A stretch of 46,533 bases of DNA from a virus, in IMG/VR virus record IMGVR_UViG_3300015209_000001, positions 1-46,533 of that record; one strand, given 5' to 3'. The notes under the pieces were generated by a model. The model was not told the DNA's origin. It did no database searches and saw only the letters and a list, made by a program, of their open reading frames with translations. Shown here piece after piece: positions 2,561 through 35,761 of this stretch. Positions within the stretch are counted from its first letter, which is position 1. The number at the start of each line of letters is the position of its first letter. Position numbers and translations under genes: made by a program.

Positions 2561-4920
2561 CTTGGCCCACCGCTGCGCCCTTCTCTGCCGAGGCGATCCT
2601 TCGCTCATCCGGCACCACCCTGACCTTCGCTGCCTTCACTCCGGTGATGATCCGCACCGAGGCCGGCGCTGCCGCGACGCTGTGGTCGAACCCCACTCGC
2701 ACCGACCCCCAGCCGAACCCCGTGGTCACCGGCCCAACGGGCAACCTGGCCGGGTTCTACCTGGACGAGCCGGGAACCTACCTGCTGGTCCCTCTGATCG
2801 GGGGAGTAGAGGGCACGGGGGTTCGAGTGGTGGTGCCGCCGGCAACCGCCGACCTGGTGCCTGTGCTTACCACCGCAGCGGGCCTCGCCGCCGAGGTAGT
2901 GGCGCGAGCCGACGCCGACGCCCTGCTCATCCCCCTCGCCCAGAAGGGAGCGGCGAATGGGGTAGCTACCCTCGACGGAGGGGGCCTGGTCCCGGTTGGG
3001 CAACTCCCGGCCCTGGCCATCACCGACACCTTCCCCGTGAACTCCCAGGCGGCCATGCTCGCGCTCGTTGCCCAGCGAGGCGACGTGGCCGTCCGCTCCG
3101 ACCTCTCCAAGTCCTTCATCCTCGCCGCCGATCCTGCTTCCACCTTGGCGAACTGGCTGGAGTTGGCGACCCCTGTGGACGCGGTGCAATCGGTCAACGG
3201 CCGAGCAGGGGTGGTGTCCGGCCTGGCCGAGCAGACGGCGGTCACCGCGGAGGCGTCGGCCCGTACCGCCGCCGACGCCGCCCACGACGGCTCGGCGGCC
3301 GCACACCCTGGCACGTTTGTACCCGTTACCGCCGGTCGGCTGATCCAGCCGACCGGCGGTGCGACACTCGACGCTGAGGCCCGCCGCACCCTTGAGGACA
3401 TCATCGCCACCCTGAACCGCTCGGTGGTGAAACCATCTGCGACCTTCGCCCCGTCGAATGCGAAGAACATCGCCTACTGGTGGCGAGCCGACCGTGGGCA
3501 CTCGGCCACGGATGGCGGTGGGGTCAGTTCGTGGACTGACGTGGTGGGTGGCTTGGCGATGGTCCAGGCGACTGGGGCCGCCAAGCCTGTCTACCGTGCC
3601 GCATCTCCAGACATGGGCAACCAGCCCAGCATCGAGTTCGACGGGGTGGGGCAGTTCTTGGCCGCCCCGTCGATGCCTGCGGTGGCGCAGCCATTCACCG
3701 TCGTCGTGGTCGGCTGCTTCGACTCGTGGGACGAAACGGGCCAACGGATGTTGATGAACCTGTCCTACGGGTGGAACATCTCGAACTTCACGCAGTCGTT
3801 GTCGCAGTACGCAGGAGCGAACGTCGTGCTGTTGAACACCACGCCGGAGTTGAGCGGGCTCGTTCACGCCCTCCACGTTCACAGCGACGGCGCTTACACC
3901 CAGGGGCGTGTAGACGGTGTGGCCGGGGCTGTCGCTGCCGGAGCCGGAGCCGCCGGGATTACCGCAGGCCAACCGGGTGCTATCGGGACCCAATGGAACG
4001 GCGACACTTCCCTGTGCTTTCGGGGCCGCATCGCCCACGTCATCATCATGTCCAACACAGCCGCCCCTGGCTCGGTGACGGCTGGGGCGACGAAGTTCAC
4101 CGAGTCGATGTATCGCCAGACCGAGGATCAGGTGCAGGCCATCTACAGGACGGCCCGCTCGGTGCTCACCCAGCCGTACAAGGCGTCCACGGTTGCCATG
4201 TCGGATGGGCAGAACGCGACCATCTACGTTCCCGCCGACTACAGCGCAGCGGTTGGAGCGCCGCTTGTCCTATGGCACCACGGTTACGGCGGCACCAACA
4301 CCGACCCGTCGTCTAGCGCTGGTCCGCTCGCCTTGCTTTACGAGCTGATCGGTGCCGGGTGCATTGTCGCCTGCTCGAACGCCTCGGGCGACAACTGGGG
4401 CAACAACGCCTCTCTTGCCAACAACAAGGTTCTGTACGCCTACATGGTGGCGAACTACACCATCACCAAGACGTTCGGTGTCGGGTTGTCGATGGGCGCC
4501 CTCGACATGCTGCTGCTCGTCAACGACGGCACCATCCCCTACAAGGGTTGCGTCGGCATATGCCCTGCCACCAGCCTCGCCTACATGTACACGGCCTTCG
4601 GGGCGACCATCAACACCGCCTACAACATCCCTGGCGGTGGCTCCTACGCAACACAGACTGCGGGACACGACCCGAACTTGCTTGCTCTAGCGGGGGCGAA
4701 GTGGGCGATTCCGTTTCGGTTCTACGACGACTCAAGCGGCGACGGCACCACCCTTCCTTCCTCGAACGGCAGGGCCATGGCTACGAAGATCGTCGCTTCG
4801 GCGTTGTCGCCCGAAGCCCGTTTCGTGAACGCCGTGTTCGGCCACCTGGCGGTGTCGCAGTTCACCGACACCGCCGCCGATGTGCGCCGGTTCTTCGACA
4901 GGGCCATTTACGGGGTATGA
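2557..4920 (+). CDS. fibre-like multidomain protein: fibre motif + LamG/ConA-like lectin domain + C-terminal alpha/beta-hydrolase (esterase/lipase-type)
   Basis: GTG overlaps the upstream TGA (GTGA). Fibre motif AQKGAANGVATLDGGGLVPVGQLP. LamG-like segment SIEFDGVGQFL..FRGRIAHVIIMS. Hydrolase part LVLWHHGYGG with nucleophile elbow GLSMG (Ser codon 4489-4491) and a late His (FGHLAV). Confidence 0.75.
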   Translation: MTWPTAAPFSAEAILRSSGTTLTFAAFTPVMIRTEAGAAATLWSNPTRTDPQPNPVVTGPTGNLAGFYLDEPGTYLLVPLIGGVEGTGVRVVVPPATADLVPVLTTAAGLAAEVVARADADALLIPLAQKGAANGVATLDGGGLVPVGQLPALAITDTFPVNSQAAMLALVAQRGDVAVRSDLSKSFILAADPASTLANWLELATPVDAVQSVNGRAGVVSGLAEQTAVTAEASARTAADAAHDGSAAAHPGTFVPVTAGRLIQPTGGATLDAEARRTLEDIIATLNRSVVKPSATFAPSNAKNIAYWWRADRGHSATDGGGVSSWTDVVGGLAMVQATGAAKPVYRAASPDMGNQPSIEFDGVGQFLAAPSMPAVAQPFTVVVVGCFDSWDETGQRMLMNLSYGWNISNFTQSLSQYAGANVVLLNTTPELSGLVHALHVHSDGAYTQGRVDGVAGAVAAGAGAAGITAGQPGAIGTQWNGDTSLCFRGRIAHVIIMSNTAAPGSVTAGATKFTESMYRQTEDQVQAIYRTARSVLTQPYKASTVAMSDGQNATIYVPADYSAAVGAPLVLWHHGYGGTNTDPSSSAGPLALLYELIGAGCIVACSNASGDNWGNNASLANNKVLYAYMVANYTITKTFGVGLSMGALDMLLLVNDGTIPYKGCVGICPATSLAYMYTAFGATINTAYNIPGGGSYATQTAGHDPNLLALAGAKWAIPFRFYDDSSGDGTTLPSSNGRAMATKIVASALSPEARFVNAVFGHLAVSQFTDTAADVRRFFDRAIYGV

Positions 4921-30947: not shown

Positions 30948-31223
30948 GTGAGTGAGCCATCGGTCTTCGAGCAGGTGGTGGCCGAGGCCCTCGCACCTTT
31001 GGAGCCATTTCACCGAGATGGCAGAGTTATGCAAATCCGTATTGAGAAGCGCAGCAAGGCTGTTCTCCACGCCCTCGCCACCGACCCCCGGTGCTTGGAA
31101 GCCATGACGGCGGCGATGAACCACTATCGACCTTTAGACGGAATGGCGCAGGTGGCAAGCACGCCAGCCAACCTGGCTCGGCGTGCCCTCGCCGCCTTCG
31201 ACCCCGAGAAGGAGACACCGTGA
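30948..31223 (+). CDS. hypothetical protein (91 aa), paralog of 27342-27710
   Basis: GTGA overlap. VSEPSVFEQVVAEAL. Confidence 0.5.
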   Translation: MSEPSVFEQVVAEALAPLEPFHRDGRVMQIRIEKRSKAVLHALATDPRCLEAMTAAMNHYRPLDGMAQVASTPANLARRALAAFDPEKETP

Positions 31224-31330
31224 CCATCCCTGTGTTTACGACAACGTGCGAGCAATGCGGCACTCGTTTTCATGCTTCCTCTGCAGAGGAAAGGCTGTGT
31301 GCTGATTGCGAGAGGGAGGAGACACCGTGA
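31220..31330 (+). CDS. 36-aa zinc-ribbon peptide
   Basis: GTGA overlaps at both ends. CEQCG..CADC. Confidence 0.4.
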   Translation: MTIPVFTTTCEQCGTRFHASSAEERLCADCEREETP

Positions 31331-31449
31331 CCCACCACTACGTCTCCACCTACTGCATCCACGACCTCCACGATGCCTGCCGCCTCACCTGCAAGCACTG
31401 CAAGGCGCCGTGTCTTTGTCGGTGCCATGTGGAGAAGGAGACGGCGTGA
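31327..31449 (+). CDS. 40-aa Cys/His-rich peptide
   Basis: GTGA overlaps at both ends. HHYVSTYCIHDLHDACRLTCKHCKAPCLCRCH, a motif I recall from other actinophages. Confidence 0.45.
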   Translation: MTHHYVSTYCIHDLHDACRLTCKHCKAPCLCRCHVEKETA

Positions 31450-31718
31450 GCGACAACCCGCCGTGTTGCAACCCGGCTCATTGGTTCGCAGGCACAAACC
31501 AATCAAACGTGGACGACAGGCAGGCGAAAGGCCGCGGCGTTGCCGTGTGGGGGTTGCCGCTTCTGAACTCACGTAAGACCCATTGCAACCGAGGCCATGA
31601 GTTCACGCCGGAGAACACTCGCATTTACCAAGGCAACCAGAGACGCTGCAAAGCGTGCGAACCCATCAACTCTCGTGAGTGGTACCACAATAAGAAGGCC
31701 GAGAATGAAGGGAGGTAA
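31446..31718 (+). CDS. N-terminally truncated HNH-like protein (C-terminal two thirds only)
   Basis: DNPPCCNPAHWFAGTNQSNVDDRQAKGR and CNRGHEFTPENT..RRCKAC parallel the 17044-17625 HNH protein. The upstream His-containing part is missing. Confidence 0.55.
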   Translation: MSDNPPCCNPAHWFAGTNQSNVDDRQAKGRGVAVWGLPLLNSRKTHCNRGHEFTPENTRIYQGNQRRCKACEPINSREWYHNKKAENEGR

Positions 31719-32825
31719 GGGGGCGGGGCTAATACAGGCCAACGCAATCGCTCTGCCATTGGCAGACGCGAGCGTGGACTTGATAATCACCTCGCCCCCG
31801 TGAGGCCTTACTTCGCCCTTCGCTCCTACCGCGACGCTGGCGAGCACTACGACGCTCAGATCGGTAGCGAGCCAACGCCACAAGCGTTTCTGGAGGCCCT
31901 GTGGTCCGTCCTGAGCGAGTGCTGGCGCGTGCTGAAGCCGACCGGCTCATGCTGGGTCAATCTCGGGGACAAGCGCAGCGGGAGCGGCGGGCACAACAAC
32001 GCCGGCATCTCGTCCAAGTCCACCCTGAGCGGCAATGGACACGTCGGCGGCGTGGGCAAGGCGGGCCCGACGAAGATCAAGGCCACGCTTCGCAACGCCC
32101 CCGACCGCTACAACCAGGCCGCCTTCGGTCGCACCAAGTCGAAGATGCTGCTCCCGCACCGCTTCGCCATCGGGTGCGAGGACGGGTTGGCCGACCCCGA
32201 GGGCATCGGGTGGATCGTGCGGCAGGACGTGGTGTGGAGCAAGAGAAATTCGCTTCCAGAATCAGTGACCGACCGGACCCGGGATAGTCACGAGTTTTGG
32301 TTTCATCTGACCAAGCAGGGGCGGTACTTCTCGGCGGTGGACGAAATCCGCCAGCCATCGGTGCCTCAGAACGGCCTAGCCGGCACGTTCAAGCGGCCCA
32401 AGCCCAGCCACGACCTTGTGCCGGGGCAGGCTGCTACCCAGCAGCGAGCAGAGCGCAACGGGGACGACGCCTACCACCCGAAGGGCGCCCTCCCTGGCTC
32501 AGTCTGGACCGTCGCCTCCGAGCCCCTACGCATCCCCGACGCGGTGAAGGCGCACTACGACCTGCCCGACCACTTCGCCGCCTTCCCGCAGGAACTTCCA
32601 CGGCGCATCATCCTCGGCTGGTCGCCGTCTGGCATCTGTGTGGAGTGTGGTGAGGGCCGACGTCCGGTGGTGATCCGAGAGTTCCACGGTGAGTTCAACG
32701 AGCAGGAAGCAGGAAGGCAACGTGAACGAGGCGTGGTGAGCGGGGCCGTCGACAAGGTGACGCTCGGCAGGACGGACGACGTGGAACGCACTATCACCGG
32801 CTACGCCTGCGCCTGCCCCCCGTGC

Positions 32826-33341
32826 GGGGATTGTTCTAGGACGCTAAGATTGTCCTATGACAAAACCGTGTCTCCAGTGCGGGTCACAGATAACCCTCGA
32901 CCACCTAAAAGTGAAGTGGGAGTCGGATCGTCTACGGGCGCTCAAGAAGGCTCGGTTTTGCTGCAAGGCATGTTCGAGTCGCTGGAACGCGGCACACCGG
33001 GCGTCAACGACGTATCGCCGGCTGACGACTCGCGGATACGTGGAACTGTGGAAGCCGAGTCACCCGATGGCGAACAAGGGCGGGTACATCATGGAGCACC
33101 GCTACTTGATGGCGGAGCACCTAGGGCGGCTCCTGACCTCGGCCGAGGTCGTGCATCACAGGAACGAGATCAAGACGGACAACCGGCTAGAAAACCTCGA
33201 AGTCCTGCAAAAGAAGGACCACGACCGCCGGCCGAAGCCGCTGCCGAAGCCGTTTCAGTGCCCTCACTGTCAGGGCTGGTTACAGACGTTCGGGAGCCAC
33301 AGCCGTGTCCGCACTGTCGTCCCGCTCCCACCAGAGCCAGT
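32826..33341 (+). mobile_element. Insertion carrying an HNH homing endonuclease inside the methyltransferase gene (free-standing or intron-borne)
   Basis: A lower-GC junction (gattgttctaggacgctaagattgtcctatgac) follows the methyltransferase sequence GYACACPP. Native methyltransferase sequence resumes near ..[18 protein letters not shown]. Boundaries are approximate. Confidence 0.5.
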
Positions 33342-33345
33342 GTGA
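32857..33345 (+). CDS. HNH homing endonuclease (HNH_3-type) with an N-terminal zinc ribbon
   Basis: [63 protein letters not shown]. Paralog of 30488-30883. Its frame differs from the methyltransferase frame. Confidence 0.85.
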
Positions 33346-33573
33346 TTCTTGATCCCTTTTCTGGAACCGGCACCGTCCCCGGAGTCGCCCGCCAGCTCGG
33401 CCGATTCGGCGTCGGCATCGACCTGAGCTTCGACTACCTGCGCCTGGCCCGTTGGTTTTTGGATGACGGCCGTAGGTTCTCAAAAACCAGCACGAGAACC
33501 GACCGGGAGCGCCAGGGCGTGCTCCTGTGACCCTGCCCGCCGCCGCCTGCGCCGCACCGCGTAACACGGCCTC

Positions 33574-33589
33574 CTAAGCCCACTACCCT
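33574..33589 (+). promoter_or_regulatory. Degenerate motif copy CTAAGCCCACTACCCT (-10 TACCCT)
   Basis: Intergenic. GTG 33597 of the small terminase follows 7 nt after the -10 (leaderless arrangement). Confidence 0.45.
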
Positions 33590-33596
33590 GTCCTGC

Positions 33597-34172
33597 GTGG
33601 CCCGCCCCCGAGGACAACCCAGCGTCATCGACTCCATCGTCGGCCACACCGCCCAAGGCGTGCCTATCACCGCCGCTGAGCGCATCCTCGACGCCATGCG
33701 AGCCGGCAACTACCTGGAGACCGCAGCCCATTCCTGCAAGATCACCAAGCAGAGCATCTTCGAGTGGCTCGGCGTCGGAGCCCAGGCCCATGCGATGCTC
33801 CATAGGGGCGAGAAGCTCACGGCCCATCAGAAACGTTGTAAGGATTTCTCTGACTCTGTAATGGAAGCAATGGGCATCGCCGAGGCCACTGACGTCGCTC
33901 GACTGGCCCAGCTGGCCCGTGGAGGACAGGAGATAACCACCACCACCACGAGGACTTTGACGGACGGAACCACCGAGACGACCGTGCGTAAGGAGTGGAC
34001 CCAGCCCGACGCCAAGGTGCTGATGTGGCGCCTGGAGCGACGGTTCGGGGACCGCTGGGGACGCCAGCGCATCGAGATCGGCCCCGTCACCCCCACGGAG
34101 CTCGCCGGCATCGAGGACGTCAAGCGCCTCCGCGACGAGTTGGCCCAGCGCCGGGGCATCACCGCGGGGTGA
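33597..34172 (+). CDS. terS: terminase small subunit
   Basis: HTH-like ILDAMRAGNYLETAAHSCKITKQSIFEWL. C-terminal VLMWRLERRFGDRWGR motif typical of small terminases. Lies directly upstream of the large terminase. Confidence 0.65.
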   Translation: MARPRGQPSVIDSIVGHTAQGVPITAAERILDAMRAGNYLETAAHSCKITKQSIFEWLGVGAQAHAMLHRGEKLTAHQKRCKDFSDSVMEAMGIAEATDVARLAQLARGGQEITTTTTRTLTDGTTETTVRKEWTQPDAKVLMWRLERRFGDRWGRQRIEIGPVTPTELAGIEDVKRLRDELAQRRGITAG

Positions 34173-35761
34173 ACGACCTCCTCGTCATCGACGACGAGCT
34201 ACTGGCCCTCGCCTCGCCCTCCGAGCTGTCGGCCTACCGGGCATGGCTGGAGGCCGAGTCCCTCGCCGACGCCGAGAGGGACCTGGAGGGCCTGGAGAAG
34301 GACTGGAAGCGGTGGCTGTGGGGCGTGTTCCCCCACCACGTTTCCGCCGGGTTTGCCCCTCACCACGAGGAGCTATGGCGGTGGGTCTGGAGCATTGAGG
34401 CAGGCCAGCCGGCTCACCCCTACGTCGCTGTGTGGGCCCGCGGTGCGGGAAAGAGCAGCACGGCAGAAATGGCCGTGGTCGCCCTCGGCGCCCGCAAGAA
34501 ACGCCAGTACGTCATCTGGTGCGGAGCGACCCAAGCCCAGGCGGATGACCACGTGCAGAACATCGCCGCCCTCCTGGAGGGCCCGGGCATCTCCCGCCTC
34601 TACCCAGCCCTGGCCACCCGCCAGCTCGGCAAGTACGGCAACTCCCGGGGGTGGAGACGCAACCGCCTGTGGACCTCCACGGGCTTCGTGGTCGACGCGC
34701 TGGGGCTCGACACCGCGGCCCGCGGGGTGAAGATCGAGGACCAGCGCCCGGACATGGCCCTGCTCGATGACCTGGACGAGGAGCACGACTCCAAAGCGGC
34801 GGTCGACCGCAAAGAAGCGACCCTGACCCGCAAGCTGCTGCCTGCGGGCACCGGGCACATGGCCGTGCTGGCGGTGCAGAACCTCGTGCACGTCGACTCG
34901 ATCTTCTCCCGCCTGGCCGATGGAAGCGCCGAGTACCTGGCCCGAAGGACGGTGAGCGGCCCCGTCCCCGCCATCGAGGGCCTGAGCACCCAGCGCAGAG
35001 AAGGGCGCAGCATCATCATCGCCGGCCGCCCGACGTGGGACGGCCAAGACCTCGACGCCTGCCAGCACGCCATCGACGAGTACGGCGAGAGCGCATTTCG
35101 CATCGAGGCCCAGCACGAGGTGAGCGTGCGGGCCGGGGGCATCTTCTCCCACCTGGAGTACGAGCACTGCGCCCCCGAGGACGTCCCCGAGCTGGTCCGG
35201 GTGGCGGTGTGGGTGGACCCGGCGGTCACCGACACCGACCAGAGCGACTCCATGGGCATCCAAGCCGACGGGCTGGGGGTCGACGGGCGGGTCTACCGCC
35301 TGCGCACCTACGAGCAGCGATCCTCCCCCCGCCTGGCCCTCGGCACGGCGATCCGGTGGGCCTACGACCTGGGGGCAGACACCGTTGGGGTGGAGACAGA
35401 CCAGGGAGGAGACACGTGGGCAAGCGTGTACCGCGAGGCGCTGGCGGATGTGGAGAAGCCCGAGGGGGCGCGCGCCCCTCGCTTCCGCTGGGAGAAGGCA
35501 GGCGCCGGCCACGGGCCCAAGGTGGCCCGAGCGATGAGGATGCTGGTGTTCTACGAGCGCAACCCCTCCGCCTTCGTCCACGTGCTCGGCTACCACACCG
35601 TGCTGGAGAACGCCCTCAACCGCTTCCCGCTGACCAAGCCGCATGACGCCGTCGACGCGAGCTACTGGGCCGCCCACGACCTGCTCGGCGGGATCAAGCG
35701 CAAGGTGACGGCCAACCCGAGCGCCCTGCGCCAGAGTGTGAGCATGTCGCACCGAGGATGA
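34169..35761 (+). CDS. terL: terminase large subunit
   Basis: GTGA overlap. Walker A VAVWARGAGKSSTAE. Walker-B-like MALLDDLDE. A C-terminal nuclease-like half. 530 aa. Confidence 0.9.
   Translation: MNDLLVIDDELLALASPSELSAYRAWLEAESLADAERDLEGLEKDWKRWLWGVFPHHVSAGFAPHHEELWRWVWSIEAGQPAHPYVAVWARGAGKSSTAEMAVVALGARKKRQYVIWCGATQAQADDHVQNIAALLEGPGISRLYPALATRQLGKYGNSRGWRRNRLWTSTGFVVDALGLDTAARGVKIEDQRPDMALLDDLDEEHDSKAAVDRKEATLTRKLLPAGTGHMAVLAVQNLVHVDSIFSRLADGSAEYLARRTVSGPVPAIEGLSTQRREGRSIIIAGRPTWDGQDLDACQHAIDEYGESAFRIEAQHEVSVRAGGIFSHLEYEHCAPEDVPELVRVAVWVDPAVTDTDQSDSMGIQADGLGVDGRVYRLRTYEQRSSPRLALGTAIRWAYDLGADTVGVETDQGGDTWASVYREALADVEKPEGARAPRFRWEKAGAGHGPKVARAMRMLVFYERNPSAFVHVLGYHTVLENALNRFPLTKPHDAVDASYWAAHDLLGGIKRKVTANPSALRQSVSMSHRG

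Follow-up and report, generated by a model that had tools for sequence, protein, structure and literature searches.

The window, which is the whole stretch of viral DNA analysed here, is a complete contig of 46,533 bp with direct terminal repeats and 68% GC. The locus of interest consists of a gene for a 90-aa HNH/His-Me endonuclease (31446-31718), a PF01555 DNA methyltransferase gene and the genes for the small and large terminase subunits, in that order. A megablast search of 31200-34200 against phage records gave no match. The features of the locus are as follows.

31446..31718, + strand: small free-standing HNH/His-Me endonuclease gene, 90 aa (PHROG phrog_1492, E 7e-18, and phrog_826)
31706..31803, + strand: N-terminal 32 codons of the methyltransferase (MKGGKGAGLIQANAIALPLADASVDLIITSPP), ending in TGA (three-frame translation; aligns with the N-termini of uninterrupted orthologs)
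31800..32822, + strand: methyltransferase body, from the remainder of motif IV to the target-recognition region and Cys cluster (GICVECGE...GYACAC; PF01555)
31801..31808, + strand: 8-nt stop-led gap (TGAGGCCT) within catalytic motif IV (SPP/Y; sequence and three-frame translation)
32823..33317, + strand: insertion element of 495 nt, or 165 methyltransferase-frame codons (alignment with orthologs)
32838..32847, + strand: AGGA (32838-32841) and a TAA (32845-32847) that closes the HNH frame 5' of the ATG (sequence)
32857..33345, + strand: HNH_3 homing-type endonuclease gene, 162 aa, from ATG 32857 to TGA 33345 (Pfam HNH_3, PHROG HNH families)
33297..33345, + strand: dual-coding overlap of the HNH C-terminus and the methyltransferase (both readings conserved in their own families)
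33318..33530, + strand: C-terminal part of the methyltransferase, from motif I to the stop codon (same frame as the N part)

As called, the methyltransferase ORF runs from a GTG at 31800 to 33530 (576 aa; PF01555, Pfam E 4.5e-25). The true start is the ATG at 31706, in a region overlapped by the stop of the upstream 90-aa HNH gene (31718). The two sides of the insertion share one frame: in a tblastn search with the ortholog P0001, residues 363-435 fall at 33306-33527, in the frame also used at 31806-32819, and the Pfam PF01555 match includes a second stretch on the C-terminal part. Uninterrupted orthologs are plentiful, and P0001-P0011, at about 430 aa, are 62-71% identical to the window methyltransferase. 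AlphaFold2 models the methyltransferase core confidently, with M.RsrI (1nw8) and M.PvuII (1boo) as the nearest solved folds. With regard to the beta-class N4/N6 methyltransferases, the PF01555 domain and the fold are present and motif I is intact, and the SPP|Y of motif IV is broken by 8 nt that include a stop.

A Pfam search with the upstream 90-aa HNH protein (31446-31718) returned no match. A homolog of this protein (47% identity) precedes a gapped methyltransferase in contig L002 (2140-2370), and a further homolog sits within a different methyltransferase insertion in L054 (3448-3600) and L058 (1258-1410). A promoter-like sequence, TTGGCA-17-GATAAT (31759-31787; 10/12 matches), lies within the N-terminal codons of the methyltransferase and ends 12 nt 5' of GTG 31800. 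The conserved PLAD..LII codons make up this sequence, which may be promoter-like by coincidence; no support for it was found in relatives.

The insertion element and its nested HNH gene

Comparison with the uninterrupted orthologs defines the ends of the insert as 32823 and 33317. At this site the orthologs read ..ITGYACAC-PDTS-APTRPAVVLDPF, and the window reads ..GYACAC-PP- followed by an insert that is bounded in the host frame by CGDC and CPHC (CGDCS...CPHC). The inserted sequence is not a conserved domain of the enzyme, as P0001-P0011 read straight across the site. The alignment agrees with the preliminary description in placing an HNH gene between the target-recognition region (GYACAC) and motif I. 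The assignment of 32857-33345 to an HNH_3-type gene nested in the methyltransferase in the +1 frame is likewise borne out, with a Pfam match at E 2.5e-9 that scores 37.1 bits (cutoff 24.8). Composition distinguishes the two readings. The insert has a GC content of 0.596, versus 0.664 in the upstream gene body. Across it the host-frame codon positions (GC 0.74/0.59/0.46) are not coding-shaped, and those of the HNH frame (GC1/2/3 of 0.60/0.46/0.77) are.

The HNH ORF takes up nearly the whole insert: 34 nt at the 5' end lie outside it, and at the 3' end it extends about 28 nt beyond position 33317 into methyltransferase sequence. The last ~15 HNH codons (..HSRVRTVV.., about 45 nt) share their DNA with methyltransferase codons (..CPxC..RPSVI), and the HNH stop, TGA, lies within GTG ATT, the Val-Ile of VILDPF. 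In the relatives described below the HNH stop also always falls inside the Val-Ile or Val codons that precede DPF. At the 5' end, the relatives have CTAGGATCGTCCTATGAC in common, which supplies an AGGA and an upstream TAG that closes the HNH frame; within it, the conserved CTAGGATCGTCCTATG sets the AGGA 7 nt 5' of the ATG. The window has 8 extra nt at this end, which put the AGGA 16 nt from the ATG, and the frame is closed by TAA. On this spacing (16 versus 7 nt), the predicted ribosome-binding site of the window HNH gene is weak relative to those of the relatives.

In the host frame, both ends of the element carry a pair of cysteines, CGDC...CPHC in the window and CxxCG...CPxCG in the relatives. 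These may form a zinc staple that ties the ends of the loop together. AlphaFold2 gave no confident zinc-ribbon geometry at the insert ends, and a regular-expression search for insert-free genes in which CxxCG is followed immediately by ..VxDPF came back empty. The AlphaFold2 pLDDT is only 31-48 across residues 349-498, which belong to the insert, beside the confident core. The insertion site is naturally variable in length, from 13 to about 70 aa in orthologs, and orthologs P0012 and P0047 have CxxC..CxxC inserts at the same site. That of P0047 (587 aa) is a DnaJ-like CxxCxGxG...CxxCxGxG zinc finger at the equivalent of window position 32823, which shows that the position tolerates small zinc modules. 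That of P0012 is a 34-aa in-frame insert at exactly the site used in the window, and its +1 frame resembles the HNH C-terminus. The DNA alignment of the two inserts is convincing at the 3' end only (27/36 nt). From these similarities, the P0012 insert is probably a deletion remnant of the HNH element.

Relatives of the element and the open host frame

The HNH family consists of proteins of 152-162 aa that are 56-71% identical, conserved to the last residues, with invariant HH..N..DN..N..H residues. Eight distinct relatives of the window HNH were found (61-80% identical), all within homologous methyltransferases and each with an open host frame. DNA context is available for loci L101, L102, L105 (partial), L106, L107, L108-110, L115/116 and L117, and for the more distant L103 and L104. 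All of these have the HNH gene in the +1 frame and a single frame for both parts of the methyltransferase, N and C, without any host-frame stop. An IMG/VR scan with the HNH protein returned only relatives at or below 53% identity, and a metagenome scan with the HNH alignment returned only five loci.

The host frame has no stop through the 495-nt insert of the window. The preliminary description had noted this correctly, although it took the foreign stretch to be about 175 codons, where alignment gives 165. It had also judged the open frame unlikely to arise by chance. For the window alone, that judgment finds modest backing, since the chance of an open frame is 1.2% when codons are shuffled, 3.7-4.3% when synonymous codons are permuted and 11% when codons are resampled from the usage of the genome; it is the family-wide pattern that argues against chance. 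Among the relatives, HNH codons ending in T never precede codons starting with AA, AG or GA (0/308), versus 113/951 elsewhere (Fisher p = 5.5e-15). For six genes the joint synonymous-permutation probability is about 1e-10. The genes have a common ancestry, so that joint statistics of this kind overstate their independence and the value is the most that can be claimed for significance. The other forward frame (+1 offset) contains 3-10 stops in each of eight genes, and the reverse-strand frames all contain stops except for one reverse frame that is open in three genes. At the level of sequence comparison this evidence is decisive: the open host frame across the family is beyond chance and indicates selection against host-frame stops.

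The host genes that carry the element look alive, judging from L102, where a single open frame of 918 aa holds a LAGLIDADG intein as well as the nested HNH insert. L108 has an open frame of 684 aa. In L106 (2136-2500), the N-terminal part of the methyltransferase contains an extra T and a compensating downstream shift, which may represent gene decay or an assembly error, so that some host genes may be decaying. When the frame-0 reading of the insert (residues 342-506) was searched against 5.8 billion proteins, nothing matched at E <= 0.001. However, the read-through ORFs were left uncalled by gene callers in the loci inspected, and this null result in protein databases is therefore not evidence against read-through.

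Several of these methyltransferase genes contain other mobile elements. An in-frame LAGLIDADG intein (..WSK|CLSGG...TENS|NGLPES..) is present in L102 (about 1054-2082) and L107 (1 to about 190), both of which carry the nested HNH gene. In L108 (719-1264, minus strand), and also in L109 and L110, a 181-aa LAGLIDADG_3-like ORF (Pfam E 1.9e-5) lies antisense inside the methyltransferase gene, and in L108 the methyltransferase frame is open through this second insert of ~190 codons, which accounts for its 684-aa open frame. By its position and domain match, the antisense ORF looks like another nested homing-endonuclease gene.

More distant 162-aa HNH_3 relatives (37-39% identity) occur in L091, L092, L096 and L097, as ORFs at 2947-3432 or 2836-3321; those of L092 and L096 are flanked by methyltransferase fragments. 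In L112 (Cylindrospermopsis phage Cr-LKS3 g59), the HNH match is out of frame within an annotated "DNA methylase". In these distant relatives and in L111, it is the other alternative frame (+1 offset) that is free of stops. L091/L092/L096/L097, L112 and L111 (Mantra gp64) probably represent further hidden-HNH lineages.

A stop-led gap in motif IV

The methyltransferase gene of the window is also interrupted near its start. The first 32 codons (..DLIITSPP) are followed by TGA, and the gene resumes 8 nt on in another frame (motif context 31792-31811); skipping TGAGGCCT restores TSPPYFALRSY. Gaps of 4-9 nt in motif IV, all of them starting with TGA or TAG, were found in six other divergent contigs, in genes that are otherwise intact.

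L002, 2588-2595: gap TGAAGGCG
L005, 1206-1212: gap TAGCTCG
L084: gap TGAGTCCG
L085: gap TGAGTTTTG, in frame
L086: gap TGACG
L087: gap TGAC, after the Tyr codon

An IMG/VR pattern scan for the motif IV gap returned only the contig of L005 and a chance AT-rich match, L113.

A start codon for re-initiation is present in only five of the seven gapped genes, and frameshifting or read-through at the gap would add 1-3 non-conserved residues to SPPY. If ribosomes made a short hop over the stop at Pro-Pro-stop, all seven genes would regain the motif. With respect to what is expected of a translational bypass, a stop follows the take-off codon in 7/7 cases, and the match of take-off and landing codons is partial: the landing codon is Pro in two of the six gaps with a CCG take-off (CCT in the window, CCG in L084) and NCG in three more. 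A small hairpin, CCUCGC-CCCC-GUGAGG, surrounds the gap in the window, L084 and L085, with fold z-scores that are not significant. The gap is a candidate for a short translational bypass; alternatively, it may be a scar that confers immunity to a homing endonuclease. Whether the methyltransferase of the window is active or dead depends on how the gap is decoded.

Interpretation and comparison with known systems

The insert is very probably a mobile, overprinted homing element of the hidden-HNH (ShiLan-like) kind that is read through as a disordered loop. Under this reading, a 162-aa HNH_3 endonuclease would be translated from the internal ATG at 32857 in the +1 frame, and ribosomes on the methyltransferase frame would be neither stopped nor spliced around; by reading frame 0, they would make a methyltransferase with an extra peptide of ~165 aa. 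This peptide would lie between the Cys cluster and target-recognition region on one side and motif I on the other, where length varies naturally, and would be tolerated through its predicted disorder and through the Cys pair at each end (CGDC...CPHC), which possibly staples the ends. The host frame would be kept open by the avoidance of T-ending HNH codons before codons starting with AA, AG or GA, and at the 3' end of the element the last ~15 HNH codons would overlap genuine methyltransferase coding sequence. We infer that both proteins would be produced and that the HNH endonuclease would home by cutting insert-free alleles. However, the window has its stop-led gap after codon 32, and without recoding, ribosomes that begin at the methyltransferase's own start would never reach the insert.

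The distribution of the element is patchy, which supports its homing character. The nearest methyltransferases of the window (62-71% identity) are without the insert. Every other methyltransferase that carries a member of this HNH family falls in a different subfamily, 45-54% identical to the window enzyme. That carrier subfamily derives from a short form, and its HNH proteins are 61-68% identical to that of the window. These relationships fit a lateral transfer by homing in which the window acquired the element ectopically.

Among the three explanations offered in the preliminary description, comparative evidence supports the last, an overprinted read-through insertion in a variable region. 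HNH ORFs are frequent in phage group I introns. Introns have also been described in actinophages (PMC3706429; discussed in PMC11855218), and a group I or other self-splicing intron that carries the HNH ORF and is removed from the mRNA before translation was the first to be proposed. The search for an intron core that this proposal called for gave only three chance-level matches and no intron (Rfam at E <= 1 over 31000-34500). Moreover, a ribozyme core would not fit: apart from 34 nt at the 5' end, the insert is occupied entirely by the HNH ORF, which also overlaps the downstream exon. The number of inserted nucleotides is divisible by three, and no relative has a stop in the host frame; there would be no point in selecting for an open host frame in a sequence that is spliced out. 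The analogous ShiLan element is likewise without intron signatures (PMC11855218). An intron is extremely unlikely here. The other proposal was that an intron-less homing insertion split the gene, so that the N fragment, the HNH protein and the C fragment are separate, the last restarting at GTG 33342 in coupling with the HNH stop. Free-standing endonucleases do occur in split genes (Aeh1 nrdA/mobE). The window does contain the GTGA overlap at 33342-33345, and one gene caller began a 67-aa C fragment at an ATGA overlap in L107. The overlap is not conserved as a restart, however: relatives have GTAA, GTAG or ATGA. At the position of the HNH stop, L107 has ATG, and L102, L106 and L108 have GTA, which is no start codon. 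In no relative does the upstream frame have a stop anywhere in the insert, and an N fragment would therefore continue into the C part. The selection against host-frame stops (p = 5e-15) would be without purpose in a split gene, and we regard this explanation as very improbable. An atypical intein, excised as an in-frame insert by protein splicing, could be suggested by the in-frame position of the insert, by its initial Cys, by the ..CPN|CG (Asn-Cys) at the end of several relatives and by the true inteins in the same methyltransferases of L102 and L107. Against it, Pfam finds only PF01555 and no Hint/intein domain in the 576-aa read-through product, the frame-0 peptide is of low complexity and predicted by AlphaFold2 to be disordered, the terminal Asn is replaced by His in the window, L101 and L107, and the nuclease is encoded out of frame. 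An intein is hardly credible on these grounds.

Two further readings concern the fate of the methyltransferase itself. The locus could be dead in this phage, with the stop after codon 32 having inactivated the methyltransferase, the open frame a legacy of the design of the element and only the HNH gene expressed. The TGA at 31801-31803 after ..ITSPP, with the rest of the gene in another frame, is what such a loss would look like, the frameshifts in L106 may be an instance of decay, and phage methyltransferases are dispensable (PMC11855218). However, the six other divergent contigs have their stop-led gaps (4-9 nt) at the same codon boundary, with downstream ORFs of ~400 codons and N-terminal peptides that are otherwise intact, and these contigs are scattered over the methyltransferase tree. 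In the window the ORF is intact for 576 codons beyond the gap. All seven gaps are stop-led, and the first Pro codon is CCC in 7/7 gapped genes versus 2/38 ungapped genes, which speaks for a recoding site under selection and against random decay. We consider a dead locus unlikely, if well short of negligible. The alternative is that the methyltransferase is made through two unconventional decodings on one mRNA, a stop-hop and read-through of the nested HNH gene, and this we put forward only tentatively, as a possibility with some way to go before it becomes the expectation. The ribosome would pause at Pro-Pro-UGA (CCC CCG TGA), skip the 8 nt of TGAGGCCT and resume at TAC, restoring SPPY; the peptide made by this putative hop would span DLIITSPPYFALR. 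The gap could at the same time be a transferable immunity scar that breaks the target of a homing endonuclease, for example that of the upstream HNH protein, and preserves the enzyme.

If the overprinting interpretation is correct, the locus illustrates how a homing endonuclease gene can persist with need of neither an intron nor an intein, the host protein being read through in another frame. The hidden-HNH strategy would then extend beyond a few mycobacteriophages to a separate lineage with another frame offset, site and start signal, and in the lineage of the window the selection against host-frame stops is measurable. There are also consequences for annotation, as gene callers report the HNH gene and drop or split the methyltransferase. 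The same methyltransferases gather inteins, antisense LAGLIDADG genes and a stop-led micro-gap in a catalytic motif; with several mobile elements in one gene family, they offer a good natural system for the question of how such elements become harmless to the host gene.

The element can be compared with three kinds of known system. With Aeh1 mobE in nrdA and with T4 mobA, it shares the invasion of a conserved phage gene by an HNH homing gene without an intron or intein; it differs in that the host gene is unsplit at the HNH gene and is read through instead. In the T4 mobA/gene 60 cassette (Bonocora et al. 2011, cited in PMC5009743), the ribosome bypasses a short untranslated gap near the homing gene. 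The motif IV gap of the window resembles this bypassed gap, although it measures 8 nt, versus 50 nt in T4, and its bypass is putative. If the hop does occur, the gap would be a miniature counterpart of the T4 cassette in high-GC phages.

The insertion in Pacc40 gp60 is the second hidden-HNH type described (PMC11855218). It has in common with the window a methylase gene that contains an alternative ORF of ~160 aa and whose own frame gives a disordered peptide there, and a related free-standing HNH gene lies upstream of the methylase in the sister phages of Pacc40. The site is different, however, and the host is a helicase-methylase fusion; Pacc40 is not among the 40 records listed in a tblastn search with the window HNH against phage records.

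The ShiLan domain is a hidden out-of-frame HNH in mycobacteriophage DNA methylases, including ShiLan gp65 and Mantra gp64 (Arsenault, Gosselin and Gogarten 2025 Genes 16:178, PMC11855218; see also Gosselin et al. 2023 Genes 14:288). Its insert adds no host-frame stop, has no intron or intein features, is predicted to form a loop when read through and is disjunct in its distribution (PMC11855218). The element of the window resembles it in each of these respects. Both are found in PF01555 phage methylases (Mantra gp64 in the ShiLan case), both have a stop-free host frame with an HNH containing zinc-finger regions in an alternative frame, and in both cases inteins and LAGLIDADG inserts are found in the same genes. 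The differences are also considerable. The window HNH is only 30.6% identical to the Mantra region (E 4e-6) and has 162 aa rather than 195 aa. It is offset by +1 rather than +2 (third frame) and occupies a different site. It starts at an ATG with AGGA upstream, whereas the ShiLan type starts at a GTG without a ribosome-binding site. Its 3' end overlaps ~45 nt of genuine methyltransferase coding sequence beside motif I, its methyltransferase belongs to another subfamily (about 32% identity to the Mantra gp63-type), and its lineage is known only from metagenomic actinophage-like contigs. Judged by these comparisons of sequence, the element of the window is of the same design as ShiLan and is a distinct, distantly related new lineage.
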